DNA of 40,000 nt from Sulfuricellaceae bacterium (GTDB taxonomy: Bacteria; Pseudomonadota; Gammaproteobacteria; Burkholderiales; Sulfuricellaceae), in the NCBI GenBank assembly GCA_030690895.1, contig JAUYFQ010000062.1:1-40000 (forward strand), written 5' to 3'. Below, in pieces: positions 7,050 to 40,000 of the stretch (its first letter is position 1; each line of letters opens with the position of its first letter). Below the pieces are notes generated by a model, which saw only the letters and a program-made list of their open reading frames with translations, was not told the DNA's origin and did no database searches. Made by a program: the position numbers and the translations under genes.

Positions 7050-8282
7050 TCACTTCGTTTGGAATGCGCTGGACATCAATTCAACTTCGGCATTTGAAAT
7101 GCCAGTCTTCCTGGCCACACTTTTCCATTTTCCAACAACGCTCAAAATTTCTTCAACAACCATCCCCGCTTGACCGGTATCAAGTCCATACCATGCTGCG
7201 GTTGATAAAGCGGCATCCAGGTTGGGACGATTATCCGACTCGTCGATGTTCAGGACGTGTTCTGCCTTGTCAATATTCGGATTAACATCAAAAGCAGGGG
7301 AGAGTCGCCACCCATCAGACCCCAGTAGAAAACCATGATTACGCAAATGGTCGTCACGATTGGACACGGCGATATTGAATACGACACGGCGAAACAACTG
7401 CTCAAGATCAGAGTGTAGTGTTCTGCCAGCACCGTTGTTATGGAGAAATTGGGCAATATCCAGGTAACTGGCGCCCTCGCTTTGTTGCTTCTTCAGCATG
7501 GTCATGGCTGAGGTATAAAACACGCGATTATGACCAGATCTATCAAAACGCTGCACACAGAAGGTGTGATACTGGCTTCCAAAACGCAGAACTCGTGCTG
7601 GCGGCATGATTACGTTTGCCGTCAGTGCCAAGGTGTGTAGCACAGCTTCCCATGCACCAATATCCCGGTCATCATCACGTGCTGGAAATTTTGCTATCCA
7701 TAATGACCCATCGTTATCGGTAAAATTTGCTTTGGGTCTGGCGCCACCCAATGATGCCCCTGGTGCAACGAGTACCGACAACCAGCGCCGCAGAGCATCC
7801 AGATCCGTGATGTGCTTATTGGTGATTTCACGGGCAACCGCTTCAAGTTCACGCAGGCTTGCAACGGGTGGGGCAGGCAATCGATGAGCGGCAAGAAACT
7901 CGGTGGACCCTTCATGACGAAAGCGTAGCGCCCCCTGCCTTGTTGCATCCTGTACGCCGATCAAGTAGTCCCATGAATGCAATGTCCTGGTTTGGCGTTT
8001 GGCATCCTTTGCCTCCAATGCCTCGCGACGCTTCATGAGCGTCTGCCCCCATCGATCAGGTGATGAATCGAGGAACACGCCAAAGTTGCCTGCGTCCGGG
8101 TTAGGGAAAAAAGGGGCTGCGTCCAGGGACAAATCTGGATCCAGCACAAAACTGGAAGGATGCTTGAGCCACGCAGGATCGTAATGGAATCTAATCTGCC
8201 CTCGATCATGCATGAGCAACCCGACTTTGTGCATTCCTTCAATGAAATCAACGTCGAGCCAGACCTCAAGCGTGTCGCTCAC
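7050..8282 (-). CDS. hipA: HipA-family serine/threonine kinase toxin (type II TA)
   Basis: 410 aa with HipA N-terminal coupling-domain-like sequence and a kinase core (NRDDHLRNHGFL). The GTG start overlaps the hipB stop (GTGA). Confidence 0.85.
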   Translation of the reverse strand: MSDTLEVWLDVDFIEGMHKVGLLMHDRGQIRFHYDPAWLKHPSSFVLDPDLSLDAAPFFPNPDAGNFGVFLDSSPDRWGQTLMKRREALEAKDAKRQTRTLHSWDYLIGVQDATRQGALRFRHEGSTEFLAAHRLPAPPVASLRELEAVAREITNKHITDLDALRRWLSVLVAPGASLGGARPKANFTDNDGSLWIAKFPARDDDRDIGAWEAVLHTLALTANVIMPPARVLRFGSQYHTFCVQRFDRSGHNRVFYTSAMTMLKKQQSEGASYLDIAQFLHNNGAGRTLHSDLEQLFRRVVFNIAVSNRDDHLRNHGFLLGSDGWRLSPAFDVNPNIDKAEHVLNIDESDNRPNLDAALSTAAWYGLDTGQAGMVVEEILSVVGKWKSVARKTGISNAEVELMSSAFQTK

Positions 8283-27493: not shown

Positions 27494-28333
27494 CTAGCGC
27501 GCTTCTTTTTTCCAGATGCTGCGATAGACCTCTCGCTGATTCTGATACTCTCCATCCTGCGCCGGGACGAAGCCATAGGGTGCTTCCTGCTTGATGATGG
27601 CGGCACTCGCAGCCAGAATTTTCATCCCTTCCGAGTCGTCTGCCATGCCAACCATCGCGTCCCGCACGGCTTTCACTACCTGAGCTGGAATTCGCGGGTG
27701 TGCGGCAGCCGGAAAGTCGAGATACTCGCCGGATGTCCACAGCGCCCGGTACTTGAAGTTCTCGCGCTCGCCATATCCGCGCATGACCTTGGAATTGACT
27801 CCCGCAGCCATAATGGCGCCAGACCGCAGTTGTGCCATGACCCCTTCCTGATTGCCTGCAAAGACCGGTTTTACCTCTATCCCCGCCTGAATCAGCATGG
27901 ACATTGGCGCTGCGTAGCCTGTGAATCCATTTTTATTGGGGAAGCCGATTTCCTTGCCTTGCAAGTCATTCAGCGACCGTATGGGCGAATTTTCCGCCAC
28001 AACGATCTGGCTTAGCAAGGGTTTGCCAGCTACTCGGGCAAATACCCGGTAGCCTGCTGCATCATGGCTGGGCGCAAAAATATGGTTGTTGAAAACGAAA
28101 TCGTATTCGCCCCGCATTTCGGCATCAGAGGTTTCCTGTGAGGTTTTGCCCATTTTGAGCTCCAGCGTGACGCCACTCTTTCTGCTGACGTACTCCAGGA
28201 TTGGGTTCCAGTATTCAGCGGTAAGCAGGGCGCTACGATGGTTGAGCACGCCGAAGGAATAGGTTTCCGCCCAGGCGGACTGCGAAAAGAAGGCCAGAAA
28301 CAGGAGGAATGCCGAGAAGATCGATTTGTTCAC
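27494..28333 (-). CDS. PhnD/SsuA-like periplasmic substrate-binding protein
   Basis: Signal peptide (FLLFLAFFSQSAWA) and the family pattern (YSFGVLNHRSALLTAEYWNPILEYV...). Lies directly upstream of the sensor gene. Confidence 0.75.
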   Translation of the reverse strand: MNKSIFSAFLLFLAFFSQSAWAETYSFGVLNHRSALLTAEYWNPILEYVSRKSGVTLELKMGKTSQETSDAEMRGEYDFVFNNHIFAPSHDAAGYRVFARVAGKPLLSQIVVAENSPIRSLNDLQGKEIGFPNKNGFTGYAAPMSMLIQAGIEVKPVFAGNQEGVMAQLRSGAIMAAGVNSKVMRGYGERENFKYRALWTSGEYLDFPAAAHPRIPAQVVKAVRDAMVGMADDSEGMKILAASAAIIKQEAPYGFVPAQDGEYQNQREVYRSIWKKEAR

Positions 28334-28419
28334 CAGGATTCCCCCGCCATGTCAAATTGTCAGATTTTGCGATCATCCAGCAAATCGCCTGTTTTGCCAA
28401 GAAATGCTTGTTGTTCCGG

Positions 28420-28490
28420 TGATGAGTAATGGGTGATGGGTAATGAGTGATAAAAACCTCCGCCCATCACCCATCACCCATTACTCATCA
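28420..28490. repeat. heptamer-array palindrome (RGTRATG units) in the divergent region upstream of hoxF
   Basis: Perfect 22-bp inverted repeat TGATGAGTAATGGGTGATGGGT (28420-28441) and ACCCATCACCCATTACTCATCA (28469-28490), each arm built from tandem 7-mers. Confidence 0.85.
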
Positions 28491-28553
28491 ATCTGTTTTT
28501 GGTCATACTTCTGGAGTAAAGTTGAAACTCCAAATCTTAGGCGAGACCGAATA

Positions 28554-30383
28554 ATGGAATCCCGGGAAATTCAGAATATGGAGTCATTTCTTGCTTCGCT
28601 TCTCAAGCAGAGCGGCGAGGACTCCGGCTCCCTGCTGCAAATTCTGCGCGAGGTGCAGGATCATTTTCATTTCATTCCGCCTGAAGCCATCGAATGGCTT
28701 GCTGCACGGCTGGATGTGCCACGCAGCCGGATCGAGGGCGTGGCGGGGTTTTATTCCTTTCTGTCCTTGGCCCCGCAGGGGGAATACCGCGTCCTGTTCT
28801 CCGACAATATCACCGATCAGATGCTGGGCAAGCTGGAGCTGATGCAGTATTTCTGCAACAAGCTGTGGGTCGAGCCGGGCAAGGTTTCGGAAGACAATCT
28901 GGTAAGCGTGGACAGCACGTCCTGCACCGGGATGTGCGACCAGGGGCCAGCAGCGCTGGTGAATGGCTGGCCGCTGACCAATCTCGACCCCAACCGGCTG
29001 GACTTGATTGCCGAGCTGATCCGCGTACGCAAGCCGCTGGCCGATTGGCCGCCGATGTTGTTTGAGGTGCAGGACAAGATACAGAAGGCTGGCGTCTTGC
29101 TGGGCGAGGCGTTTGAGCCCGGAGCGGCAATCCGCGCCACGCTGGCGCGCGGCGCGATGGCGACGCTGGATGAAGTGGAACGCGCCAATCTGCGAGGACG
29201 GGGCGGAGCCGGGTTCAAGACCGCGTCCAAGTGGCGTTTTTGTCACGCTGCCATCGACGAGCGCGAGGGCAGCATGATCTGCGATGTGGGCGGCCTGCCG
29301 CAGCGGGTCATGGTGTGTAACGCCGACGAGGGCGAACCGGGGACGTTCAAGGATCGCGTGCTGCTCAATAGCTACGCCGATCTGGTGTTCGAGGGCATGA
29401 CGGTGGGTGCGCGGGTGGTCGGGGCGAGCCTGGGTTTTCTCTACCTGCGCGGTGAATACCGCTATCTGAAAGCGCCACTGGAAGCCGTACTGGCGCGTCG
29501 GCGCGAGAGCGGGTTGCTGGGGCGCTCGATTTTGGGTGAGGCAGGATTCGATTTCGATATTGAAATCCATCTGGGGGCGGGCGCCTATATCTGTGGCGAG
29601 GAATCGGCGCTGATCGAGTCGCTCGAAGGCCAGCGCGGACGGCCGCGCAACCGACCCCCTTTTCCGGTGACGCAAGGCTACATGGGCAGGCCGACGGTCG
29701 TGGATAACGTCGAGACGTTCGCCTGCGCCGCAAAAATTGCCGAGAAGGGCGGCGCATGGTTTGCCGCCATGGGCACGGCGCAATCGACCGGCAGCAAGCT
29801 GCTTAGCATCTCCGGCGACTGCGAGCGGCCCGGTATTTACGAATACCCGTTCGGGGTAACGGTAGAAGAAGTGCTACGCGATTGTGGCGCAAGTGATGCG
29901 CATGCCGTGCAGGTAAGCGGCCCTTCCGGAACGCTGGTTTCCTGGCAGGAATTCGGTCGCCGGATTGCGTTCGAGGATATTCCGACCGCCGGCGCATTCA
30001 TGGTTTTCCACCGCCAGCGCGAAATGTTTCTGGCAGCACATAATTTCACGAATTTTTTTGCGCATGAAAGCTGCGGTTTCTGCACCCCGTGCCGGGTCGG
30101 CACGCAATTACAAAAGCGCATCATGGACAAGATCGCCAGCGGTCACGGCACCCCGGCTGATCTGGAAGAACTCAAACGGCTGGGCGAGATTCTGGTCAAT
30201 ACCAGTCATTGCGGTCTGGGACACAGCGCGGCCAACCCCATCCTGGATACGCTGAAAAAATTCCCCGGCACGTTTGAGCGCAAACTCAAAAATCTGGCTT
30301 TTGAGCCCGCCTTCGACCTGGACGGCGCATTGGCAACCGCACGCCAGATTACCGGGCGAGATGATGAATGGGCGCATTTGTAA
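28554..30383 (+). CDS. hoxF: NAD-reducing [NiFe] hydrogenase diaphorase subunit HoxF (fused NuoE-like and NuoF-like)
   Basis: FMN site RGRGGAGFKT, NADH site GAGAYICGEESALIESLEG and 4Fe-4S site ESCGFCTPCRVG. Start taken at ATG 28554 because the track start (28443) lies inside the repeat. Confidence 0.88.
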   Translation: MESREIQNMESFLASLLKQSGEDSGSLLQILREVQDHFHFIPPEAIEWLAARLDVPRSRIEGVAGFYSFLSLAPQGEYRVLFSDNITDQMLGKLELMQYFCNKLWVEPGKVSEDNLVSVDSTSCTGMCDQGPAALVNGWPLTNLDPNRLDLIAELIRVRKPLADWPPMLFEVQDKIQKAGVLLGEAFEPGAAIRATLARGAMATLDEVERANLRGRGGAGFKTASKWRFCHAAIDEREGSMICDVGGLPQRVMVCNADEGEPGTFKDRVLLNSYADLVFEGMTVGARVVGASLGFLYLRGEYRYLKAPLEAVLARRRESGLLGRSILGEAGFDFDIEIHLGAGAYICGEESALIESLEGQRGRPRNRPPFPVTQGYMGRPTVVDNVETFACAAKIAEKGGAWFAAMGTAQSTGSKLLSISGDCERPGIYEYPFGVTVEEVLRDCGASDAHAVQVSGPSGTLVSWQEFGRRIAFEDIPTAGAFMVFHRQREMFLAAHNFTNFFAHESCGFCTPCRVGTQLQKRIMDKIASGHGTPADLEELKRLGEILVNTSHCGLGHSAANPILDTLKKFPGTFERKLKNLAFEPAFDLDGALATARQITGRDDEWAHL

Positions 30384-30566
30384 TGGGTCTTCGTAACGAC
30401 TCAGGCCTCTCGCCAAAATGGAGGAAAAATGTTGGGTTACGGTGCAAAAAACGGCACCTGACAGTATCTAACATGGAATGGCTTTACACGTATGGTGACA
30501 TGGATGCGAGGTGCATCTCTTGCACGGCAAGAACCGTGTTACAGCTCTTGATATCAACCCAATAAA

Positions 30567-30583
30567 GGTATAGTTTATATACC
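30567..30583 (+). promoter_or_regulatory. putative brnTA operator
   Basis: GGTATA-N5-TATACC palindrome ending 1 nt before the brnT ATG. TTGATATCAA palindrome at 30548-30557. Confidence 0.4.
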
Positions 30584-30847
30584 ATGCTTACCTTTGAGTT
30601 TGACGAATCCAAGAGCCAGGCAAATTTTTCCAAGCACGGCATCAACTTCGTTGATGCACAGCTTCTATGGAATGACCCGATGCTATTGGAAATCCCGGCA
30701 AAAACGGAAGAGGAGCCCCGATATCTGGTGATAGGGCTTATCAACGGAAAACACTGGTCAGCCATCTTCACCCACAGAGGCGTAAATATCCGACTGATTT
30801 CCGTTCGTCGGTCGCGAACTGAGGAGGTAGCACTCTATGAAAGCTGA
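30584..30847 (+). CDS. brnT: BrnT-family (DUF497) type II toxin
   Basis: 87 aa with the pattern FEFDESKSQANFSKHGINFVDA...LISVRRSR typical of BrnT. Overlaps the downstream antitoxin gene. Confidence 0.8.
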   Translation: MLTFEFDESKSQANFSKHGINFVDAQLLWNDPMLLEIPAKTEEEPRYLVIGLINGKHWSAIFTHRGVNIRLISVRRSRTEEVALYES

Positions 30848-31106
30848 AACATTCGATAAGCAGTTTGATGAAGGCGCAGATGTTACCGCCTCTCTGGATT
30901 TATCCAAGGCAAAGCGAGTTTTGCTGGAGCAAAAACGCGTTAACGTCGATTTCCCTACATGGATGATTGAATCGTTAGATCGAGAAGCGGGGAGGCTCGG
31001 AGTTACCCGGCAATCCATCATCAAGGTGTGGCTCGCCGAGCGCCTCGAAAGCTCCGCTCCTGGCACGCAACCCCAGCGGGTGTGCCGCGATGTGGCTCTT
31101 CGCTAA
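30837..31106 (+). CDS. brnA: BrnA-type CopG/RHH antitoxin
   Basis: 89 aa. The C-terminal RHH-like segment (VNVDFPTWMIESLDREAGRLGVTRQSIIKVWLAERL) is typical of BrnA. 11-nt overlap with brnT. Confidence 0.75.
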   Translation: MKAETFDKQFDEGADVTASLDLSKAKRVLLEQKRVNVDFPTWMIESLDREAGRLGVTRQSIIKVWLAERLESSAPGTQPQRVCRDVALR

Positions 31107-31168
31107 ACTCCACGAAACCATCAGGGTGAATAAGAAAGGATGGCCTGTGGTTAACAAGGCGTTTTGAA

Positions 31169-31906
31169 ATGAAGACTCTGAAAATAGACGGATGCGAAAT
31201 CCCCTTCACCACCGGGCAGACCATCATGGATGCGGCGCTGGCTGCCGGGGTTTATATCCCGCATCTGTGCCATCACCCCGAATTCAAGCCGCACGGTAGT
31301 TGCAAGCTGTGTACGGTGAAGGTGAACGGGCGTCATGTGTCGGCCTGTACCTTGCCGGTGGGCGAGGGTATGGAGGTGGAGAACAATAGTGCGGAACTGA
31401 ATGCCGATCGCCTTGCGCTGGTGCAGATGCTGTTTGTCGAGGGCAATCACTTGTGTCCGACTTGCGAAAAAAGCGGGAATTGCCAGCTCCAGGCGGTGGC
31501 CTACCATCTCAATATGTTGACCCCGCATTACAATCATTTTTACCCGCCGCGCGAGCTTGATGCCTCTCATCCCGATGTGTTCCTGGATCGCAACCGCTGC
31601 ATTTTGTGCGAGCTGTGTGTGCGAGCCAGTCGGGATGTGGATGGCAAGGAGGTGTTTGGCCTTTCCGGGCGTGGAGCCAGTTCCCGCCTGGTGGTGAATT
31701 CACCCAGCGGCAGGCTGGCCGATAGCAGCTTTGCTGTTACCGACAAGGCCGCCAGGGTGTGCCCGACCGGCGCGATTCTGATCAAGCGGGTGGGATTCAG
31801 CGTGCCGATTGGTGAGCGGATTTTTGATCGGCATGACATTAGTGAACTGGGCATTAGTGAACCGGGCGAAGGTGGAGGTCAACATGGCAGTTTCCCTCTC
31901 TCCTAA
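31169..31906 (+). CDS. hoxU: hydrogenase diaphorase iron-sulfur subunit HoxU
   Basis: A 2Fe-2S N-terminus (CHHPEFKPHGSCKLCTV) followed by 4Fe-4S motifs (CPTCEKSGNC, CILCELCVRAS). The last codons and the TAA stop lie inside a repeat element. Confidence 0.9.
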   Translation: MKTLKIDGCEIPFTTGQTIMDAALAAGVYIPHLCHHPEFKPHGSCKLCTVKVNGRHVSACTLPVGEGMEVENNSAELNADRLALVQMLFVEGNHLCPTCEKSGNCQLQAVAYHLNMLTPHYNHFYPPRELDASHPDVFLDRNRCILCELCVRASRDVDGKEVFGLSGRGASSRLVVNSPSGRLADSSFAVTDKAARVCPTGAILIKRVGFSVPIGERIFDRHDISELGISEPGEGGGQHGSFPLS

Positions 31907-32561
31907 CTCTCTCCCGGGGGGTAGCCCCCTCCCCAACCCTCCCCCGCAAGCGGGAGAGGGGGCAATGGTCAAGGGCGCTTGTTCTGATTTGAGGGACGCA
32001 GGCTCGCTTTGCGAGTCTCATATTAGGCCTAAAATCCGTATTGCCACCTGTTCGCTGGCGGGCTGCTTCGGCTGCCACATGTCCTTGCTGGATATTGATG
32101 AAAAACTGCTCGATCTGCTTGAGCTGGTCGAATTCAACCGTAGCCCGTTAACCGATATCAAACACTGCGGGCCGTGTGATGTCGGTATTGTCGAAGGCGG
32201 GGTGTGCAATGCCGAGAATGTCCACGTCCTGAAGGAATTTCGCAAGCACTGCAAGGTGTTGGTCGCCATGGGCGCCTGCGCGATTACCGGCGGCCTGCCC
32301 GCCATGCGCAACAATATTGACCTGTGGGACTGCTTTCAGGAGGTGTATCTGTACGAAGGCGGGCTGGAGGGTGGACAAATTCCAAATGACCCCGAGCTGC
32401 CCCTGCCGTTCGACAAGGTTCACCCCATCTATGAAGTGGTCAAAGTGGATTATTTCCTGCCCGGCTGTCCGCCCTCTGCCGATGCGATCTGGCACTTCTT
32501 GACCGAATTGCTGGCGGGCAGGGAACCAGGCGTGACCGGGAAGCAATTACATTTTGATTAG
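31884..32561 (+). CDS. hoxY: [NiFe] hydrogenase small subunit HoxY
   Basis: The conserved core starts at KIRIATCSLAGCFGCHMSLLDIDE. ATG 31884 has GGAGG 6 nt upstream. An alternative ATG at 31965 lies inside the repeat. The N-terminal ~27 aa are repeat-encoded. Confidence 0.85.
   Translation: MAVSLSPNSLPGGSPLPNPPPQAGEGAMVKGACSDLRDAGSLCESHIRPKIRIATCSLAGCFGCHMSLLDIDEKLLDLLELVEFNRSPLTDIKHCGPCDVGIVEGGVCNAENVHVLKEFRKHCKVLVAMGACAITGGLPAMRNNIDLWDCFQEVYLYEGGLEGGQIPNDPELPLPFDKVHPIYEVVKVDYFLPGCPPSADAIWHFLTELLAGREPGVTGKQLHFD
31888..31977. repeat. composite palindromic repeat at the hoxU/hoxY junction
   Basis: Module TTTCCCTCTCTCCTAACTCTCTCCC (31891-31915) plus a core at 31925-31977 that is 52/53 identical to 38659-38711. 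Confidence 0.85.
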
Positions 32562-32633
32562 GGATGTTGGCTGTTTCCGCACCCCTTATGTGTCCAGCGA
32601 TTCTGGAAATTACTGGGGCGTTTCTTGTTGTTT

Positions 32634-32646
32634 AACGCGTCGCGTT
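32634..32646 (+). promoter_or_regulatory. putative HigA operator upstream of higB
   Basis: Perfect palindrome AACGC-GTC-GCGTT, 14 nt upstream of the higB ATG. The same half-sites recur at 33054-33066. Confidence 0.45.
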
Positions 32647-32659
32647 ATATCATGCAGCC

Positions 32660-32938
32660 ATGATTCAGTCATTCAAGTGCAGCATTACGCAGGCGCTGTT
32701 TTCCGGGCAGGCTGCTCCACGCTTTATAAATATCCGTTCTGTTGCTGAACGAAAATTGCAAATGTTGCACCGGGCAACGCGTTTGGATGATTTGCGTATC
32801 CCGCCTCAAAATAGGCTGGAAAAGCTGAAAGGTACTCGCAAGGCGCAATGGAGTATCCGCATCAATGACCAATGGCGCATATGCTTTCGTTTTGAAGATG
32901 GGAATGCTTTTGAAGTTGAGATCGTGGACTACCACTAA
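32660..32938 (+). CDS. higB: HigB-type (RelE/ParE superfamily) toxin
   Basis: 92 aa with IRINDQWRICFRFEDGNAFEVEIVDYH, typical of plasmid-maintenance killer HigB. Confidence 0.8.
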   Translation: MIQSFKCSITQALFSGQAAPRFINIRSVAERKLQMLHRATRLDDLRIPPQNRLEKLKGTRKAQWSIRINDQWRICFRFEDGNAFEVEIVDYH

Positions 32939-33046
32939 CGGGCATGGCGAATTGCCGCCCCAAATAATGTACCCATGGGCATAAAAAACATCGATTCGCC
33001 ATGCCCGTTTCCCCCACCCCTGCCCTCCCCCGGTGGGAGAGGGGGA
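32939..33046. repeat. two repeat hairpins in the higB-higA spacer
   Basis: Hairpin CGGGCATGGCGAATTG (32939-32954) with CGATTCGCCATGCCCG (32992-33007), then a degenerate GC-rich core CCCCCACCCCTGCCCTCCCCCGGTGGGAGAGGGGG (33011-33045). Confidence 0.65.
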
Positions 33047-33084
33047 CGAAGGCAACGCTTCGCGTTGTTTCACGTTAAAAGGAA

Positions 33085-33399
33085 ATGATTGTGACTGTGA
33101 CCAATGGCATGCGCCCGATTCATCCGGGAGAAATTTTGCGCGAGGAATTCATGATCCCTCTGGGACTGTCTGCCAACGCGTTGGCGCTCGCCCTGCGCGT
33201 ACCTGCGCCACGCGTTAATGACATTGCGCGAGAGCGACGCGCGATCAGTGCCGATACCGCTCTACGCCTGTCACGCTATTTTGGCACCAGCGCGGAATTC
33301 TGGCTGGGCTTACAAGCTGACTTTGACCTGAAAATCACTCAGGCTGAAAATGGCATCAAAATTGAACAGGATATTGTCCCCATGCCCGTTGCGGCATAG
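33085..33399 (+). CDS. higA: HigA-family HTH antitoxin
   Basis: Contains HPGEILREEF...GLSANALALALRVPAPRVNDIARERRAISADTALRLSRYFGTSAEFWLGLQ, classic HigA/VapI. Alternative ATG at 33109. Confidence 0.85.
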   Translation: MIVTVTNGMRPIHPGEILREEFMIPLGLSANALALALRVPAPRVNDIARERRAISADTALRLSRYFGTSAEFWLGLQADFDLKITQAENGIKIEQDIVPMPVAA

Positions 33400-33412
33400 C
33401 GGCGAATCAGCT

Positions 33413-34897
33413 ATGACATTTGAACTGGAAACTGCCGCCCACCCGGAAAACCTCAGACGCGTGGTGATCGAGCCCGTGACCCGCGTGGAAGGGCACGGAA
33501 AAGTCACCCTGCTGATGGACGAGAATAACCGCGTGCACCAAGCGCGCTTTCATATTGTCGAATTTCGCGGTTTCGAGAAATTCATCCAGGGGCGGCCATA
33601 TACCGAGGTGCCGGTGCTGGTGCAGCGCCTGTGCGGGATTTGCCCGGTCAGCCACCATCTGGCGGCGACCAAGGCGATGGACCAGATTGTCGGCGCAACG
33701 ATCACCCCCAGTGCAGAAAAGCTGCGCCGCCTCATGCACATGGGGCAGATTTTGCAATCTCACGCCCTGCATTTCTTTTATCTGGCCTCGCCGGATTTGT
33801 TGTTCGGTTTTGATGCCGAGGTGGGGCAGCGCAATATCGTGGGTGTGGCAACTGCTTTTCCGGACATCGCCCGCCAGGGCATCGCCCTGCGCAAGTATGG
33901 GCAGGAAATCATTCGTCTGACGGCTGGCAAGCGCGTCCATGGCACGGGCTCCATCCCCGGCGGGGTCAACAAGAATCTGAACCGCGCCGAGCGGGATGGT
34001 TTGCTGGCCGAGATCGACCAGATCATTGCCTGGAGCCTGGCGGCGGTGCAAATGGTGAAAAAACTCTTCAGTGACCGGCCAGAGTTTTATACCGGCTTCG
34101 GCTTCTATCGCTCCAGCTTCATGAGCCTGGTGCGCCCGGATGGCGCGCTGGACTTGTACCACGGCGGCTTGCGCGCCCGCGATGAGCACGGACAGGATAT
34201 TTTCGACCATCTCGATACCGACCGTTACTGGGACGTCATCCACGAAGAAGTCAAACCCTGGTCGTACATGAAATTCCCCTTCATCCGCTCGCGTGGGCCG
34301 GAGGAGGGCTGGTATCGGGTGGGACCGCTGGCACGGGTGAACAATTGCGATTTCATTCCCAGTCCCCTGGCAGAGCAGGAACGCCAGGTTTTCAAGCAAG
34401 CCGGCGATGCCACTCATGCCACGCTGGCCTACCACTGGACGCGCATGATAGAAATGTTGCACTGCGCCGAAGTCATCCGCGAGCTGTTGCTGGACGACGA
34501 CCTGTCCGGGGACGATCTGGTCAATACCGGCGAGCGTCAGTTGCGCGGCGTCGGGGTGATCGAAGCGCCACGCGGCACCTTGATTCACCACTACCGCATC
34601 AATGAAGACGAACAGATCGTGCGCGCCAACCTGATCGTTTCCACTACCCACAACAACCATGCCATGAACGAAGCCATTCGCCAGGTGGCGCTGCAATATC
34701 TGGATGGACAGGAACTGACCGAAGGCCTGCTCAACCATATCGAAGTCGCCATCCGCGCCTTCGACCCCTGCCTCTCCTGCGCCACTCATGCGTTGGGAAA
34801 AATGCCGCTGGAAGTGGAGTTGCTGGATGCCGCCGGAACGCAGGTCGGTCGTCTGGTGAAAAACTCTGAAGAGCCGGACTGGTGCGCCCCATCCTGA
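33413..34897 (+). CDS. hoxH: [NiFe] hydrogenase large subunit HoxH
   Basis: N-terminal Ni-binding RLCGICPVSH and C-terminal DPCLSCATH followed by a cleavable extension. ATG 33413 lies 13 nt after the higA stop; the track start 33350 would overlap higA. Confidence 0.92.
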   Translation: MTFELETAAHPENLRRVVIEPVTRVEGHGKVTLLMDENNRVHQARFHIVEFRGFEKFIQGRPYTEVPVLVQRLCGICPVSHHLAATKAMDQIVGATITPSAEKLRRLMHMGQILQSHALHFFYLASPDLLFGFDAEVGQRNIVGVATAFPDIARQGIALRKYGQEIIRLTAGKRVHGTGSIPGGVNKNLNRAERDGLLAEIDQIIAWSLAAVQMVKKLFSDRPEFYTGFGFYRSSFMSLVRPDGALDLYHGGLRARDEHGQDIFDHLDTDRYWDVIHEEVKPWSYMKFPFIRSRGPEEGWYRVGPLARVNNCDFIPSPLAEQERQVFKQAGDATHATLAYHWTRMIEMLHCAEVIRELLLDDDLSGDDLVNTGERQLRGVGVIEAPRGTLIHHYRINEDEQIVRANLIVSTTHNNHAMNEAIRQVALQYLDGQELTEGLLNHIEVAIRAFDPCLSCATHALGKMPLEVELLDAAGTQVGRLVKNSEEPDWCAPS

Positions 34898-35340
34898 TTT
34901 TTGGCTACGGCAACCCGAGCCGGGGTGACGATGCCATTGGCCCGCTCCTGATCGAGCAACTGGCCAGGCTGGACTTGCCGGACGTGGATCTATTGACGGA
35001 TTTCCAGCTCCAGGTCGAGCATGCGCTGGATCTGCGCGGGCGCGAGCGGGTGTTGTTTGTCGATGCCAGTTATGTCTGCCAAGACCCTTATGAGCTGACC
35101 CGCATCCAGCCTGCGGCTGACGCCAGCTATACCTCCCACGCCATGAGTCCTGCGGCAGTGCTGCAAGCCTGTGCCGAATTGTATGGTGAGGAACCCGAGA
35201 GCTGGATGCTGGCAGTGAGGGGCGTCTCGTTTGAGTTGGGCGAGCCTTTGAGCGTCGAGGCTACAGGCAGTCTGGATGCGGCTGTTACGAAGGTTTTGGT
35301 GTGGCTTGACGGTGACTGTGCGCAGAATGAAGTAAAATGA
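34882..35340 (+). CDS. hoxW: hydrogenase maturation endopeptidase HoxW
   Basis: The motif GYGNPSRGDDAIGP is typical of HybD/HoxW proteases. The GTG start overlaps the hoxH end by 16 nt. Confidence 0.85.
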   Translation: MRPILIFGYGNPSRGDDAIGPLLIEQLARLDLPDVDLLTDFQLQVEHALDLRGRERVLFVDASYVCQDPYELTRIQPAADASYTSHAMSPAAVLQACAELYGEEPESWMLAVRGVSFELGEPLSVEATGSLDAAVTKVLVWLDGDCAQNEVK

Positions 35341-35346
35341 ACACCT

Positions 35347-35895
35347 ATGGCACTCAAAGCAACCATCTTCAAGGTAGAACTCAATATTTCAGACATGGAT
35401 CGTCATTATTACGGCGACCATACGCTGACCATTGCGCGCCACCCATCCGAAACCGACGAACGCATGATGGTGCGTCTGCTGGCGTTCGCGCTGCATGCGC
35501 ACGAGGCATTGGCGTTTGGGCGGGGGGTCAGTACCGATGACGAGCCAGACTTGTGGCAAAAGGATTTGACCGGTGCCATCGAGTGCTGGATCGACGTCGG
35601 CCTGCCGGATGAAAAACTTATCCGCAAGGCTTGCGGGCGCTCGAAGCAGGTGTTTGTCTACAGCTATGGCGGCCGTGGCGCGGATATCTGGTGGGGGCAA
35701 AACAGCAGCAAGCTCGAACGCCTGGATAACCTGACCATCATGAACCTGCCCCTTGCCACCACTCAGGCTATGGCGAAACTGGCCGAGCGCAACATGTCTT
35801 TGCAATGCACCATTCAGGATGGCGAAATCTGGCTGTCTGGCGAGAATGACACGGTGCAGGTGAGTTTGATACCCATCATGGCATCTCGTAGGTAA
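35347..35895 (+). CDS. yaeQ: YaeQ family protein
   Basis: MALKATIFKVELNISDMDRHYY...LTIARHPSETDERMMVRLLAFAL matches the YaeQ family pattern. Confidence 0.85.
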   Translation: MALKATIFKVELNISDMDRHYYGDHTLTIARHPSETDERMMVRLLAFALHAHEALAFGRGVSTDDEPDLWQKDLTGAIECWIDVGLPDEKLIRKACGRSKQVFVYSYGGRGADIWWGQNSSKLERLDNLTIMNLPLATTQAMAKLAERNMSLQCTIQDGEIWLSGENDTVQVSLIPIMASRR

Positions 35896-35968
35896 AGGGG
35901 TAGCTTCACCCGCCCTGATTTCAATTTTTAGATCGGTGGTGCATCTGGTGAGCTACTGCGCAGTTAAA

Positions 35969-36093
35969 CTGAGATTGTTCATTAGACAGGATCTCGTCAA
36001 AACAACGGGATGTAGGGGCGAATTTATTCGCCAAAGGCGGTTAATACCCATGGGCACAAGAACCGCCCCTACAAGTGCTAATGGACATCTGGG
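35969..36093. repeat. MITE-like element, second copy of the 13631-13750 family (opposite orientation)
   Basis: Shares ATTGTTCATTAG, a TGTAGG...CCTACA core (36011-36073) and AATGGA..GGG ends with the reverse complement of 13631-13750. TTAAA lies on the left flank (35964-35968). Confidence 0.55.
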
Positions 36094-36578: not shown

Positions 36579-39500
36579 TTAACCCGCCACCACTCGAACC
36601 CTGCCTTGCTCATCCCGCACAGCCCGCCCCAGCGCCACCAGGGTTTCCAGCAGTTGCGGCAAGCGTTTTTTCCATGCGCCCTTGCCGCTGAAATGCTCGG
36701 CCAGCTCGGACTCGGAAAGCGGCTTGCCTGCGCTGGACAAAATCTGGGCGATGGCGGCCATTTGGGCGGGGAGTTCGGCGGGCCAGGGGGATTTGCTTTG
36801 CGCATTCTCCCCCTCGCCGGTATTTACCCCCTCCCCAACCCTCCCCCGGAGGGAGAGGGGGCTATCCATTGGGGTTTCAGCGTTTGTACCATTAAGTTGC
36901 TGCTGTTGCGGGGCTGCCTGGGGATGCTGGTAGGCGGGGCGCAGCCAGCGGATTTGGCCTTGGGCTTCCTCGGCGGCGCGTTCGGTGTTGAGGGCGACGA
37001 GTCTTTCGAGGATAGTTTCGGCCACGCCCCCTTCTCCTCCGGCCTGGTAGGGCGCAATAACCAACGGGCATTGCGCCGGAGGCATCTGGTGCAATGCGCC
37101 ACGCTTATTGCACCCTACAATATCCAGGTCGCTCCAGCCATAAGCTTGCAGCACCGCCGCATCAAGGTCGTCGTGGAAGGATTTGAGCACGGCGACCAGG
37201 CCTTTTTCGTAAATCGCCTGCTCCTTCGCGTTTCGGTCTGCGCCAGTTCTCAGTTTTTCCAGCACGTTATATAGCCCGGTCAGCGTTAACTCTGGATGCT
37301 CGGCCAGCACGCGCTTGCGGTGGGCGTCGAGCTGTTCGGCGAGAGAGCGAATGCGAGCAGATAAAACAAATCGCTCTTGTCCATTGCCCCCTCTCCCTCC
37401 GGGGGAGGGTTGGGGAGGGGGTAAGTCGGGGAAAGGGAAAGTCTCGAAGCAGCGGGATTTGTTGTAGCGCGGCCTGTCTTCCAGCGTGCCACCTTGCGCC
37501 AGCGCCCAGATGACATGCACCTGGCTCGACAGCACGCCCAGCCAATAAGCATCATCGAGCGCGATGCAAATCAGTTTGTTGTCCGGCGCAATTTCAGCAT
37601 CCAGAAACTGGAAAACTCGGTGCTTGGCGGTTTCGACGGTGGCGATGTAGCGTGGCAGGCCGGTGAGCGTGGCACGCATGACTTTGCGCGGCTCTCCGAA
37701 AATCCACCAGTTGTCGCGGTAACTTGCCCGGTTGTTGAGGTCACGTTCGGGTTTTACCCGTTCCAGCACCCATTGATAGGTGGCTGGCCAGCGGCGACGC
37801 ACTTCGTCTGCATCATGGCCGTAGAGATCGATCAATTTGACGCCGCGCGGTCGGTCGGTGAGGTCGCGACCATTGCGGTAGGGCTTGATTGGCGCATCGG
37901 TTTCGAGTTGCGCAGCTTGTTCCGGCGTGACGATAAAACCCGAACCAAACAACTGAAAACCACGATTCGCAAGCCCTTCATTGGCCCGCAACCCCAACGC
38001 CCCCGCCACATTCGCCCCAATGCTCAAGTCGGCATGAATCACGCCAACACGCTGTGCCAGCGTCACTTCCAACCCCTCGCCGCTGCCGCTTCGCTCGTCG
38101 GTCACGGTGAGCAGGCATCCCTGCTCCCCTCTCCCTCCGGGGGAGGGGGTGGGGGTGGGGGAGGGGGAGGGGGAGGGCACGCCAACCGTCATCGCAATCC
38201 GAACCGCCGCGCCGCCGCTGTTTTCCACCCAGGGATGGTCGGGGATGGCGAAGGCCAGGTGTAGCATCTTCACCCTCTCCCCAACCCCTCTCCCGTCAAG
38301 GGAGAGGGGTTTTTCTCCCCTCCCCCCTCGCGGGGGAGGGGCTGGGGGAGAGGGGTTTAAGGTCGGAGAGGGAGATAAATACGCTTCCAGCACGCGGCGG
38401 TTGAAGGTCTGGCGCAGGCTGTTGGTGGTGATGAAGCCAAAGCGTTGCGCCTTGCCTGCTGTGACCAGCGCGGCGGCCTTGTGCCACCAGAACATGACCA
38501 GGTCGGCGGATTCCGGCACCTCCGGGTAGGCGGCGCGCAAGGCGTCCACGTAGGCGTCGCCCAGCGCGGCACGCATGGCGGATGCGCCGATGAAGGGCGG
38601 GTTGCCGATGATGTAGTCGGCTTCGGGCCAATCTGCTGGTTTACCCTTGCCTGCTTTACCCCCTCCCCAACCCTCCCCCGCAAGCGGGAGAGGGGGCAAT
38701 GGTGAAGGGCGATGGGTTTTATCTGGGGGCAATGGTGAGGGGCGATTGTTTAGAACGGCGTCACGGCATTCGATGTTGTGAAAATCGCGCAGCACCGGTT
38801 CGGGCGGGAGGCTGGCGCCTTTTGTGCGGAAGTGCCATTGCAGGTGGCCGATCCATAGCACCAGTTCGGCGATGGCGGCGGCGCGGGGGTTGAGTTCGAT
38901 TCCAAGAAACTGGTGCGGATCGACGGTCAGTCCTTCGGCGTCGAGACTGCCGGAGGCGCCGAGGTCTTGCAGCAAATCCAGCACTTCGCCTTCGAGCCGC
39001 TTCATGTGTTCCATAGTGACGTAGAGGAAGTTGGCCGAGCCGCAGGCGGGGTCGAGTACGCGAATGTTGCATAGCCGGTAGTGGAAGGCGCGGATTTCCT
39101 GTTGCGCTTCTTTTGCGCGGCCTTCGCGGTCGAGCAGCAGGGCGGCGGCCTGGATGTTGGCCCATTCTGCGCGTAGCGGTTCCATCACGGTGGGGAGCAC
39201 CAGGCGTTCGACGTAGGCGCGGGGGGTGTAGTGCGCGCCGAGGCTGTGGCGTTCGCTGGGGTCGAGGGCGCGTTCGAGCAGGGTGCCAAAAATGGCGGGT
39301 TCGACCAGCGTCCAGTCGGCATGGGCGGCGCGTAACAAAAGGGTGATTTGTTCGCGGTTTAACGCTAGCGCGGTTGGATTTTTGAAGAACTTGCCGTTGA
39401 AGCGCGGCAGTTTGGCGCGCAGGGCGATGGAGAAACCGCCGCTGTCCATTTTTTGCCACAGTTCGCTGACCATGGCTTCAAATTGTTCCGGCGCGTCGGC

Positions 39501-40000
39501 CAGACTTTCGAGCAGGGCGGTGAAGCCGCCTTTGCCGTCTTGTCTGGGTAGCAGGGCGACATCTTCGGCGAACAGGGTGAACAGGCAGCGGGTGAGGAAT
39601 CCGGCGACTTCGTGGGTGTCGTGCCCGGCCTGTTCGAGCGATTTGGCGAGCAAAGCGAGGTCGGCGGAGATTTTACGGGTGACTTTTGCGGAGATGCGGG
39701 TGGGGTCGAGCGCCATGGGGTCTAGCCAGACCTGGCGCAGGCGTTCGCGGATTTCAGGCCGGTTCAGGTCGGGTATGCGGATGCGGTGGCTGCCAGGGTC
39801 GGGATAGGGCAGGTATGCGCCGCCACTGCGGCTGAATTCGCTGTATAGCTCGATGACATCGCCGACATCGATGATGATCAGAAAGGGTGGGCGGGTTTCG
39901 TCAGATGGCAAGCTGCGGGCGTAGTTTTGCGCTTGGCCATGGGCGCCGCGCAGGGCGATTTTAGCACCCTGAGTTTCGCGGTTCTGCTGCACGCCTTTGG
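36579..40000 (-). CDS. MmeI-like (type IIL/IIG family) N6-adenine DNA methyltransferase; 5' end outside the window
   Basis: SAM motif I VLDPACGSANFL, motif IV NPPFIGA, and a helical spacer FLTRCLFTLFAEDVALLP as in the MmeI family. The frame stays open to the window edge, so the GTG at 39992 is probably internal. Five repeat-derived insertions. Confidence 0.8.
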   Translation of the reverse strand, partial: KGVQQNRETQGAKIALRGAHGQAQNYARSLPSDETRPPFLIIIDVGDVIELYSEFSRSGGAYLPYPDPGSHRIRIPDLNRPEIRERLRQVWLDPMALDPTRISAKVTRKISADLALLAKSLEQAGHDTHEVAGFLTRCLFTLFAEDVALLPRQDGKGGFTALLESLADAPEQFEAMVSELWQKMDSGGFSIALRAKLPRFNGKFFKNPTALALNREQITLLLRAAHADWTLVEPAIFGTLLERALDPSERHSLGAHYTPRAYVERLVLPTVMEPLRAEWANIQAAALLLDREGRAKEAQQEIRAFHYRLCNIRVLDPACGSANFLYVTMEHMKRLEGEVLDLLQDLGASGSLDAEGLTVDPHQFLGIELNPRAAAIAELVLWIGHLQWHFRTKGASLPPEPVLRDFHNIECRDAVLNNRPSPLPPDKTHRPSPLPPLPLAGEGWGGGKAGKGKPADWPEADYIIGNPPFIGASAMRAALGDAYVDALRAAYPEVPESADLVMFWWHKAAALVTAGKAQRFGFITTNSLRQTFNRRVLEAYLSPSPTLNPSPPAPPPRGGRGEKPLSLDGRGVGERVKMLHLAFAIPDHPWVENSGGAAVRIAMTVGVPSPSPSPTPTPSPGGRGEQGCLLTVTDERSGSGEGLEVTLAQRVGVIHADLSIGANVAGALGLRANEGLANRGFQLFGSGFIVTPEQAAQLETDAPIKPYRNGRDLTDRPRGVKLIDLYGHDADEVRRRWPATYQWVLERVKPERDLNNRASYRDNWWIFGEPRKVMRATLTGLPRYIATVETAKHRVFQFLDAEIAPDNKLICIALDDAYWLGVLSSQVHVIWALAQGGTLEDRPRYNKSRCFETFPFPDLPPPQPSPGGRGGNGQERFVLSARIRSLAEQLDAHRKRVLAEHPELTLTGLYNVLEKLRTGADRNAKEQAIYEKGLVAVLKSFHDDLDAAVLQAYGWSDLDIVGCNKRGALHQMPPAQCPLVIAPYQAGGEGGVAETILERLVALNTERAAEEAQGQIRWLRPAYQHPQAAPQQQQLNGTNAETPMDSPLSLRGRVGEGVNTGEGENAQSKSPWPAELPAQMAAIAQILSSAGKPLSESELAEHFSGKGAWKKRLPQLLETLVALGRAVRDEQGRVRVVAG
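36805..36873. repeat. intragenic GC-rich palindromic repeat, methyltransferase locus A
   Basis: Core CCCCCTCCCCAACCCTCCCCCGGAGGGAGAGGGGG (36827-36861), translated antisense as SPLSLRGRVGEGV. Confidence 0.75.
37381..37425. repeat. intragenic GC-rich palindromic repeat, methyltransferase locus B (reverse orientation)
   Basis: CCATTGCCCCCTCTCCCTCCGGGGGAGGGTTGGGGAGGGGGTAAG, translated as LPPPQPSPGGRGGNG. Confidence 0.8.
38120..38177. repeat. intragenic repeat hairpin plus G5-run tract, methyltransferase locus C
   Basis: CCCCTCTCCCTCC/GGGGGAGGGGG followed by (G5N)n to 38177; encodes PSPSPSPTPTPSPGGRGEQG. Confidence 0.75.
38268..38378. repeat. intragenic double palindromic repeat, methyltransferase locus D
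   Basis: Hairpins at 38273-38309 and 38315-38355; encodes SPSPTLNPSPPAPPPRGGRGEKPLSLDGRGVGERV. Confidence 0.75.
38637..38752. repeat. intragenic GC-rich palindromic repeat, methyltransferase locus E
   Basis: Core at 38659-38711 (52/53 identical to 31925-31977) plus a direct duplication of GGGGGCAATGGTGA(A)GGGCGAT. Lies between the DAVL motif and WPEADYIIGNPPF. Confidence 0.8.

Follow-up and report, generated by a model that had tools for sequence, protein, structure and literature searches.

Two toxin-antitoxin cassettes, BrnT/BrnA and HigB/HigA, within the hox hydrogenase operon of a Sulfuricellaceae bacterium

In a 40,000-nucleotide stretch of a Sulfuricellaceae genome (assembly GCA_030690895.1, contig JAUYFQ010000062.1, positions 1 to 40,000; hereafter the window) we found two complete toxin-antitoxin (TA) modules, brnT-brnA and higB-higA, between the structural genes of a hox hydrogenase cluster. 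Nine co-directional open reading frames (ORFs) occupy the plus strand from 28554 to 35340 in the order hoxF, brnT-brnA, hoxU, hoxY, higB-higA, hoxH and hoxW (Table 1). This order had been given in an initial annotation of the same DNA, together with gaps of 785 nt between hoxF and hoxU (30384-31168) and 851 nt between hoxY and hoxH (32562-33412) and a hoxH start 13 nt past the higA stop, and all of these values were exact on recheck. The annotation had further called both TA modules complete and set a profile search as a check; in that search all four small ORFs matched TA profiles strongly. We consider it probable that two mobile TA cassettes entered a vertically inherited hoxFUYHW operon in sense orientation and persist there passively, as selfish elements at permissive junctions.

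Comparison with related hox loci provided the background for this reading. Species representatives of the Genome Taxonomy Database (GTDB) were scanned with HoxH, which yielded 80 genome loci from genera including Sulfuricella, Sulfurimicrobium, Nitrosospira, Gallionella and Dechloromonas (HoxH 67-85% identical), and a second sample comprised 80 metagenome loci. Median gaps between hoxF and hoxU, hoxU and hoxY, hoxY and hoxH, and hoxH and hoxW were 5, 4, 13 and 5 nt in the genome loci (from 76-78 of them) and 11, 7, 21 and 6.5 nt in the metagenome loci (from 52-79). With medians of 4-13 nt and 6.5-21 nt, the expectation that these genes are normally contiguous was borne out. The hoxF TGA of the relatives overlaps the hoxU ATG (ATGA), and the hoxY ATG overlaps the end of hoxU; in uninterrupted close relatives the hoxY-hoxH spacer measures 8-14 nt and has no strong Shine-Dalgarno sequence. 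The alignments thus show the reconstructed ancestral operon to have been compact, with overlapping stop and start codons. Such compact hoxFUYHW clusters (Sulfuricella, Sulfurimicrobium, Nitrosospira, Dechloromonas), which we take to be of the Cupriavidus necator (Ralstonia eutropha) SH type, resemble the window in their five genes of the same order, a fused HoxF, and HoxW downstream.

Homologues of BrnT, BrnA, HigB and HigA were absent from all 160 hox loci (tblastn, 1e-5). Five loci of the Sulfuricella/Sulfurimicrobium type (L034, L031, L011, L010, L007) have an 83-85% identical pyruvate:ferredoxin oxidoreductase (PFOR) gene upstream of an uninterrupted hox cluster, and this shared neighbour indicates that the hox locus was vertically inherited and that the TA modules were acquired specifically in this lineage. 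The closest HoxU relative found (86% identity, locus L183) has an uninterrupted ATGA hoxF/hoxU junction; the top HoxU match, P0241, was discarded as a tandem-duplicated gene model from a eukaryote assembly. The TA genes differ from the hox genes also in composition, with a GC content of 0.47-0.56 against 0.55-0.60 and a third-position GC (GC3) of 0.51-0.58 against 0.66-0.74, which bears out the by-eye impression of the initial annotation that the TA segments are more AT-rich. Its suggestion that both modules were inserted later is well supported by the syntenic TA-free relatives, the L183 junction, the low GC3 and the occurrence of homologous cassettes in unrelated contexts.

Table 1. Features of the hox locus and REP-like sites in the window (GA, gathering threshold of the profile; HTH, helix-turn-helix).
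Feature	Position	Strand	Basis or content
hoxF, diaphorase large subunit (fused NuoE-like and NuoF-like)	28554-30383	+	Pfam 2Fe-2S_thioredx, Complex1_51K, NADH_4Fe-4S
Left copy of imperfectly duplicated hoxF-stop/hoxU-start junction	30371-30385	+	GGCGCATTTGTAATG
Spacer of unassigned origin, hoxF stop to brnTA cassette, 163 nt	30384-30546	+	matches no fetched hox or brnTA locus
brnTA promoter/operator-like segment	30547-30583	+	TTGATA 30548-30553; TATAGT 30569-30574; palindrome GGTATA-GTTTA-TATACC 30567-30583 up to brnT ATG
brnT, toxin	30584-30847	+	PF04365 3.5e-24, 85.3 bits vs GA 34.5, profile 1-77 of 77
brnA, antitoxin	30837-31106	+	NF047399 equivalog 2e-36, 123.9 bits vs cutoff 60; PF12441 4.2e-07
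brnA-hoxU trailer, 62 nt	31107-31168	+	only weak AAGG Shine-Dalgarno; no RNA structure; stands in for ancestral ATGA coupling
Right copy of duplicated hoxF/hoxU junction	31158-31171	+	GGCGTTTTGAAATG
hoxU, diaphorase small Fe-S subunit, intact	31169-31906	+	NF005745 HoxU 9.6e-53; Pfam Fer2_4, NADH-G_4Fe-4S_3, Fer4_15
hoxY, hydrogenase small subunit	31884 or 31965 to 32561	+	PF01058 2.8e-31
REP-like GC-rich palindromic element, hoxU/hoxY junction	31925-31962	+	repeat-family match
Post-hoxY stretch of uncertain origin, 62 nt	32562-32623	+	weak arnC 3'-end resemblance: GCGATTCTGGAA vs GCAATTCTGGAA
higBA promoter/operator-like segment	32624-32659	+	TTGTTG 32625-32630; perfect palindrome TAACGCG-T-CGCGTTA 32633-32647; TATATC 32646-32651
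higB, HigB-family toxin	32660-32938	+	PF05015 6.6e-18, 65.4 bits vs GA 27
Nested insertion between higB and higA, 152 nt	32939-33090	+	nearest higBA relatives have 0-12 nt there
higA, HTH antitoxin	33091 (GTG)-33399	+	TIGR02607 7.8e-32, 108.9 bits vs cutoff 47.7; PF01381
higA-hoxH spacer, 13 nt	33400-33412	+	equals median native hoxY-hoxH spacer; no strong Shine-Dalgarno, like native spacers
hoxH, [NiFe] large subunit, intact	33413-34897	+	PF00374; motifs RLCGICPVSH, DPCLSCATH
hoxW, maturation endopeptidase	34882-35340	+	TIGR00072 7.7e-23; 16-nt overlap with hoxH end
REP-like sites in the window	31925-31962, 33011-33046, 36839-36862, 37386-37409, 38124-38150, 38285-38309, 38317-38341, 38672-38695		

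BrnT/BrnA systems were first characterised in Brucella abortus. Like other systems of this kind, the window pair has the toxin gene first and an overlapping antitoxin gene of the CopG/RHH type (11 nt, 30837-30847), and both profiles were matched over their full length. BrnT also matched the toxin chain of PDB entry 7VD7_A (1.5e-07). This BrnT clade is widespread and highly conserved: the best 120 matches were 79-100% identical and included Rugosibacter, Nitrospirota, Ferrovum, Nitrosomonas, Methylotenera and Leptospirales metagenome-assembled genome (MAG) proteins, and the nearest homologues reached 92-94%. The closest brnTA copies (92-93%) belong to other taxa, where they lie in TA islands or beside DDE/IS91-type transposases and integrases, and none of them lies in a hox locus. 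The number of synonymous substitutions per site (dS) between brnTA and its nearest copies was 0.30-0.42, compared with about 1-1.8 between the hox genes and their nearest relatives, which fits a recent horizontal spread of the cassette. The window brnTA is thus evidently a member of a mobile BrnT clade, with a putative ribonuclease as toxin. It departs from its relatives in being placed inside a metabolic operon and not in a TA island, plasmid or transposon setting, and in a BrnA C-terminal tail that is 3-5 residues longer than in homologues. The ratio of nonsynonymous to synonymous substitution rates (dN/dS) was about 0.10 for brnT and 0.19-0.22 for brnA; the range over both genes, 0.09-0.22, gives indirect support to a putative ribonuclease toxicity neutralised by BrnA.

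Nucleotide homology to brnTA cassettes elsewhere (89-91%) runs from 30547, 37 nt 5' of the brnT ATG, to 31055-31088, and includes the promoter-like segment. Its hexamers and palindrome arms fall into invariant columns of an alignment of seven loci (TTGA-A/T-AT hexamer, TATA-rich box, GGTAT...ATACC). The homologues at L083, L088, L089, L090, L092 and L093 have a TG just 5' of the -10-like box (TGGTATATT), forming an extended -10. The window copy reads AGGTATAGT, without this TG, which may make its promoter weaker than those of cassettes that stand alone. The whole spacer in front of brnT (30384-30583) has a GC content of 0.455 and no significant RNA structure (z = -1.5).

Both ends of the 785-nt insert carry a copy of the hoxF-stop/hoxU-start junction; the uninterrupted junction of L183 reads GGCGCATTTATGAA, in wider context ...GGGCGCATTTATGAATAC... 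The local-alignment shuffle test alone did not make this duplication significant (160/2000 shuffles) and is insufficient by itself, and we regard the duplication as credible because of the alignment with L183. Since the junction motif is duplicated, the hoxF stop and the hoxU start could both survive an insertion into their overlap. Across the two insertions, short direct repeats at the flanks were not significant on their own (160/2000 and 324/2000 shuffles), and terminal inverted repeats were not significant either (962/2000 and 1459/2000 shuffles).

The second cassette resembles HigB/HigA systems with solved structures (6F8S; 4MCT, 'Killer protein / Endoribonuclease HigB') in its toxin-first order and in an HTH_3 antitoxin of the TIGR02607 family. 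HigB is a toxin of the HigB-like RelE-fold kind, and its residues 2-92 align end to end with 6F8S_B ('putative killer protein', 2.2e-27), presumably Pseudomonas putida GraT. HigB also keeps a C-terminal VDYH, of which DYH is present in the 4MCT HigB chain. The GTG start of higA was placed by alignment with 102-aa homologues (HigA of L094 and L099). The nearest HigB relatives are 86-87% identical (Sulfurimicrobium and metagenomes), with a dN/dS of 0.03-0.04 for higB and 0.07-0.08 for higA, values that suggest maintained function. Homology with Sulfurimicrobium-type higBA cassettes begins at 32624, 36 nt 5' of the higB ATG, and covers 32624-32936 and 33103-33374; the promoter/palindrome segment lies in conserved alignment columns.

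These nearest higBA relatives (L094-L100; e.g. L094 2915-7314 and L099 1447-6099) sit in sense orientation between arnC-like and arnA-like genes, that is in an operon of the lipid A modification type, and are followed there by a variable third gene (GIY-YIG of the LEM-3-like kind, or HARE-HTH). The arn-type operon is a second operon colonised by the same higBA lineage. The 62 nt after hoxY in the window resemble the arnC 3' end weakly, with a local alignment score reached by 13/2000 shuffles for L094 and 62/2000 for L099. Apart from its place in the hox and not the arn operon, the window copy is set off from its relatives by its interior. Its higB and higA do not form the tight bicistronic arrangement typical of such systems, and 152 nt of repeat DNA separate the two genes. 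In this spacer the two arms of a perfect 16-bp inverted repeat (32937-32952 and 32994-33009) are followed by a GC-rich palindrome of the REP-like kind (33011-33046) and then by a hairpin of small size (33047-33062). The RNA of the spacer is predicted to fold with -65.3 kcal/mol (z = -5.4).

The initial annotation stated that the TA pairs, with their operator-bearing leaders, fill both gaps completely. The part concerning operators stood, insofar as each cassette is predicted to carry its own conserved control region with a promoter and a palindrome. This region is shorter than the leader, amounting to only about 36-37 nt of each, and the claim of a full account did not stand: 163 nt before the brnTA cassette and 62 nt before the higBA cassette are of unassigned origin, and the nested 152-nt repeat splits higB from higA. 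From the promoter geometry, transcription probably begins at the toxin ATGs or immediately upstream of them. Terminators isolating the blocks from each other, a possibility the annotation had raised against its own proposal, were not convincing at any plus-strand junction in a consensus scan for intrinsic terminators. The scan gave weak candidates only, most of them within coding sequence and one at 33047-33062 (5-bp stem), and RNA folding assigned no significant structure to the junction spacers other than that between higB and higA.

The hoxU/hoxY junction is also altered, being about 150 nt longer than in L183 and holding a REP-like element. The core of this repeat family, CCCTCCCCC-N5-GGGAGAGGGG, occurs at about 8 distinct sites in the window versus 0.01 expected. 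Two start codons are candidates for hoxY, ATG 31884, preceded by GGAGG 5 nt upstream as in relatives, and ATG 31965. From ATG 31884 the REP element is in frame with hoxY, and this copy may then be translated as an N-terminal extension of the protein. Near the 3' end of hoxU we observed a 15-nt tandem duplication, perfect but for one position (31837-31866, CATTAGTGAACTGGG / CATTAGTGAACCGGG), that adds 'ISELG ISEPG' to the HoxU C-terminus. Three of the four hox operon junctions in the window are thus remodelled, with expansions of 785, about 150 and 851 nt versus medians of 4-13 nt in relatives. The initial annotation had overlooked the hoxU/hoxY element and its expansion, as well as the repeat insertion between higB and higA and the cyanobacterial precedent described below.

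The window stems from a MAG contig, and REP elements break short-read contigs in this region. An assembly or binning artefact with chimeric joins at repeats would produce a similar picture. Two Logan contigs from run SRR13727535 (L001, ending at 31917, and L182, starting at 33053, in each case right at a REP element) were, however, 100% identical to the window and span the hoxF-brnT, brnA-hoxU and higA-hoxH junctions, i.e. three of the four TA/hox junctions. Because an independent assembly spans these junctions, a MAG chimera is unlikely. The junctions also lie in unique sequence and not in repeats, and the reading frames and the duplicated junction motif are preserved. We therefore regard an artefact as extremely improbable. 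Exact-sequence look-ups of HigB, HoxH and the long form of HoxY gave no matches, leaving the hoxY-higB junction without independent assembly support.

The hox genes themselves appear well preserved. HoxF residues 1-609 are covered in relatives (tblastn; dN/dS 0.08-0.12), HoxU is NuoG N-terminal-like and its homologues are named '[NiFe] hydrogenase diaphorase moiety small subunit' or 'HoxS subunit gamma' in the source databases, and HoxY is 88-93% identical to its counterparts in L008 and L034 over residues 21/23-198. HoxH is 80-85% identical to HoxH of Sulfuricella and Sulfurimicrobium (dN/dS about 0.10), contains both the RxCGxC and the DPCxxCxxH ligand motifs and extends in translation about 35 residues past DPCLSCATH. 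Its best matches in NCBIfam were all under their cutoffs, and we infer a group 3d-type NAD-reducing [NiFe] hydrogenase from the subunit composition only. All hox ORFs are full length compared with their homologues and keep their metal-ligand motifs, and the approximately 5.3 kb of hox coding sequence contain no frameshift or stop. TA and hox ORFs alike are intact by these comparisons and bear a signature of purifying selection; the dN/dS values (0.05-0.19 for hox, 0.03-0.22 for the four TA genes) span history before the insertions and hence stand for absence of decay, not for proof of present function.

A published precedent for such an architecture exists in Cyanobacteria. The hox operon of Synechocystis PCC 6803 reads hoxEF-sll1222-hoxUY-ssl2420-sll1225-hoxH (Kopfmann 2016, PMC4963859, section 2.4.2, Table 2). 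A type II TA module is made up of Ssl2420 and the PIN protein Sll1225, and Sll1222 belongs to the DUF820 proteins associated with TA systems; the module has no transcription start of its own, being part of the hox transcription unit (PMC4963859). The eight genes of the cluster make up one polycistronic transcript (PMC4264147), the replacement of the promoter by an inducible one raises all eight mRNAs together, and the enzyme is functional with the TA-interrupted operon (Dutheil/Cassier-Chauvat, PMC3933540). TA modules or DUF820 genes were also reported near hox in seven other cyanobacteria (PMC4963859). The novelty implied by the initial annotation is accordingly lower, since a co-transcribed example was already known (PMC4963859, PMC3933540).

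Both operons encode a bidirectional NAD(P)-linked [NiFe] hydrogenase, and both have extra sense-oriented genes at hoxF/hoxU and hoxY/hoxH, those at hoxY/hoxH being a type II TA pair in either case. They belong to different phyla, Cyanobacteria in one case and Betaproteobacteria in the other, and differ in the TA families, which are of the PIN/VapC type with the antitoxin first in Synechocystis and BrnT/BrnA and HigB/HigA in the window. At hoxF/hoxU a single DUF820 protein in Synechocystis contrasts with a complete TA module in the window, and the cassettes of the window keep conserved promoter/palindrome segments where the Synechocystis module is without its own transcription start. By the look of these differences the insertions are clearly independent and convergent and do not go back to common ancestry.

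Further inserts were present in the surveyed loci. A Sulfuricellaceae MAG (L021) has a nucleotidyltransferase/HEPN-type (MNT/HEPN) pair (PF18765 and PF08780) at hoxY|hoxH, with a 183-nt leader and an end 16 nt before the hoxH ATG. At hoxH|hoxW of a Rhodocyclaceae MAG (L035) we found a DUF4258 toxin and a zinc-finger MqsA-like antitoxin (29.4 bits, just below GA 30); ATGA overlaps join hoxH to the pair and the toxin to the antitoxin, and on this arrangement the pair is to be seen as fully integrated in the operon. As judged from their domains, these are two further independent betaproteobacterial cases with TA pairs unrelated to those of the window. REP-like elements were detected in hox junctions of L002, L007, L010, L011 and L057, and L181 has an antisense cupin/transporter pair in a hox junction. 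In the genome set hoxY|hoxH was the junction most often hit (7/78 loci with more than 150 nt); among close relatives it is the sole junction without overlapping or abutting neighbour genes.

Other loci contained larger or different genes at the same places. The Sulfuricella MAG with the most similar HoxH (L008 3814-9000, 85%) has hoxY and hoxH split by 5.2 kb that encode, all on the hox strand, an S-adenosylmethionine (SAM) methyltransferase, a PAS histidine kinase and a response-regulator/DUF3369/GGDEF/EAL protein. On a metagenome contig (L138 636-4626) a GIY-YIG gene lies at hoxU|hoxY, a 217-aa ORF without assignment at hoxY|hoxH and a DUF559 gene at hoxH|hoxW. A DUF559 gene near-identical to the latter lies at hoxH|hoxW of L142 (8065-8906) amid REP-like repeats. 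DUF559 and GIY-YIG genes appear to occupy the same niche as the TA modules.

These comparisons show that brnTA entered hoxF/hoxU and higBA hoxY/hoxH, each with its own promoter/palindrome-like segment of about 36 nt. A REP-type element of a kind spread genome-wide and a 16-bp inverted-repeat element landed later between higB and higA, and another REP copy, also later, in the hoxU/hoxY junction. Under the reading we favour, the whole cluster would still be read through from the hox promoter as one unit, with the TA genes expressed whenever hox is; this is suggested by the lack of convincing terminators and the working Synechocystis precedent. Autoregulated TA promoters might add low hox-independent transcription of hoxUY and hoxHW, and of the downstream gene yaeQ. 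The proposals of the initial annotation that subunit stoichiometry may hang on read-through of the TA promoters, and that the TA genes may follow hox induction, are plausible. HoxU would have lost its translational coupling to hoxF, and translation of hoxH would now depend on the stop codon of higA, at a distance of 13 nt that imitates the native spacing between hoxY and hoxH. The cassettes would persist through addiction and because only non-polar sense inserts survive, at the few permissive junctions; they would not be retained for a service to the hydrogenase, and any stabilisation against deletion would be a by-product. Three observations lead us to prefer passive persistence to a dedicated role: about 98% of the relatives have no TA modules at these sites, selfish elements other than TA modules occupy the same junctions, and the higBA lineage of the window is also found in an unrelated arn operon.

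The same observations bear on the question, raised by Kopfmann et al. for Synechocystis, whether TA modules stabilise the hox operon (PMC4963859). The modules would then be kept adaptively, since a cell that lost this accessory operon would be left without the labile antitoxins and would die or be arrested. At least five TA families are now known from hox operons of independent lineages, namely two in the window and those in L021, L035 and Synechocystis (PMC4963859). The two window modules bracket hoxUY and flank hoxF and hoxH, such that few deletions in the cluster would leave both antitoxins in place, and the remainder of the window region is a mosaic that includes an IS66 transposase and a HipA toxin. 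Yet hox is retained without any TA module in about 98% of the relatives surveyed, the remaining junction inserts are REP elements or selfish genes of a non-TA kind as expected from passive tolerance, and the occurrence of the nearest higBA relatives in the unrelated arn operon speaks against a specificity for hox. Adaptive stabilisation therefore seems unlikely to us.

Alternatively, the TA modules could have been co-opted as regulators of the hydrogenase, with internal promoters and with RNase toxins that cleave the polycistronic mRNA and so tune HoxF, HoxUY and HoxHW under stress. The conserved promoter/palindrome segments lie directly 5' of the hoxU-proximal and hoxH-proximal units, the ancestral hoxF/hoxU coupling is lost, hoxH translation probably depends on that of higA, 13 nt upstream, and Synechocystis shows an identical partition into F, UY and H (PMC4963859). 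The subunits are required in roughly equal molar amounts, however, so that uncoupling is likelier to be a cost than a function; the same cassettes and promoters are also found in unrelated contexts, and a chance match at two of four junctions would be expected in about 1 of 6 cases. We consider co-option quite improbable.

It could also be that the insertions are polar and that the hox operon is effectively dead or decaying, the intact ORFs merely reflecting how recent the events are. Compared with the closest relative the F/U, U/Y and Y/H junctions are all expanded, the 5' part of hoxY holds a REP element, no strong Shine-Dalgarno sequence precedes hoxU or hoxH, and no hyp maturation genes were found within the 40-kb window. 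Against this, coding sequence and metal-binding motifs are undamaged, relatives too have no Shine-Dalgarno sequence before hoxH, the REP element is in frame with hoxY, no convincing terminator is present and the Synechocystis enzyme is active with an analogous architecture (PMC3933540). A dead operon is in our view very improbable.

Several points also weigh against passive persistence as we propose it. Read-through, internal promoter activity and hydrogenase function are all things we infer from sequence. A strict sigma-70 scan called neither TA promoter; their -35/-10 spacers are about 15 nt long, and the brnTA copy of the window lacks the TG of the extended -10. No transposon ends were found at either insertion. 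The very stable fold of the higB-higA spacer might act as an attenuator of transcription or shift the balance between toxin and antitoxin. This 152-nt insert sits uneasily with a fully active HigB, since it should reduce the antitoxin relative to the toxin, barring a separate start for higA or an attenuated HigB. The signal of purifying selection includes pre-insertion history, and the distances to the nearest relatives (dS above 1) are too large to date the insertions. Besides the window, TA pairs occurred in only 2 of about 158 surveyed hox loci, and this hox-only sample does not separate a permissive junction from an enrichment of TA modules.

By family, the TA modules and the hydrogenase are unremarkable representatives of known kinds, and for the architecture there is the cyanobacterial precedent. 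New in the window are the other phylum, the unrelated TA families, a complete TA module at both sites and the retention of cassette promoters. Additional interest comes from the recurrent independent TA invasions of hox operons and from breakpoints that can be reconstructed to the nucleotide. The case illustrates how TA cassettes may wedge themselves into a translationally coupled operon without destroying it, by sense orientation, junction duplication and mimicked spacing. Together with the higBA copies in arn operons it suggests that operon junctions are a regular and under-appreciated habitat of TA modules. One could go further and propose that hox junctions are convergently and preferentially colonised by TA modules that benefit the operon, in Cyanobacteria and at least three betaproteobacterial lineages and with at least five families, a proposal we consider unlikely. 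If it were true, the benefit might be an addiction-based protection of an often-lost accessory operon, or a tuning of the diaphorase:hydrogenase ratio in redox stress by toxins or promoters. An enrichment of TA modules at hox junctions would also bear on the long debate over whether chromosomal TA modules stabilise neighbouring genes. For operon annotation and expression models, co-regulation of the hydrogenase subunits from the hox promoter alone should not be assumed, and engineering or heterologous expression of such clusters would bring toxin genes along.

The surroundings of the operon showed additional features. Downstream, yaeQ (35347-35895, +) begins 6 nt past the hoxW stop and is, from this spacing, probably co-transcribed with hoxW; it followed hox in none of the 80 related genome loci. 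Upstream, the divergent intergenic region between a phosphonate-binding-protein gene (27494-28333, -) and hoxF contains a hairpin (28417-28495, -46 kcal/mol, z = -9.4) with heptamer-like repeats (GGTGATG, AGTAATG and similar). It had no counterpart upstream of the hox genes of relatives and could be a regulatory site or another mobile repeat. In an Rfam scan of 28000-36000 this hairpin gave sub-threshold matches to miRNA models, which we rejected as generic hairpin matches. Farther upstream, the window encodes an IS66-family transposase and a HipA-like kinase toxin (3194-4627 and 7050-8282, both -), so that mobile and TA-type genes abound in the wider region. Several REP copies lie in frame inside a 1137-aa ORF (36579-39992, -), where they read e.g. 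PLPLAGEGWGGGK or SPGGRGEQG.

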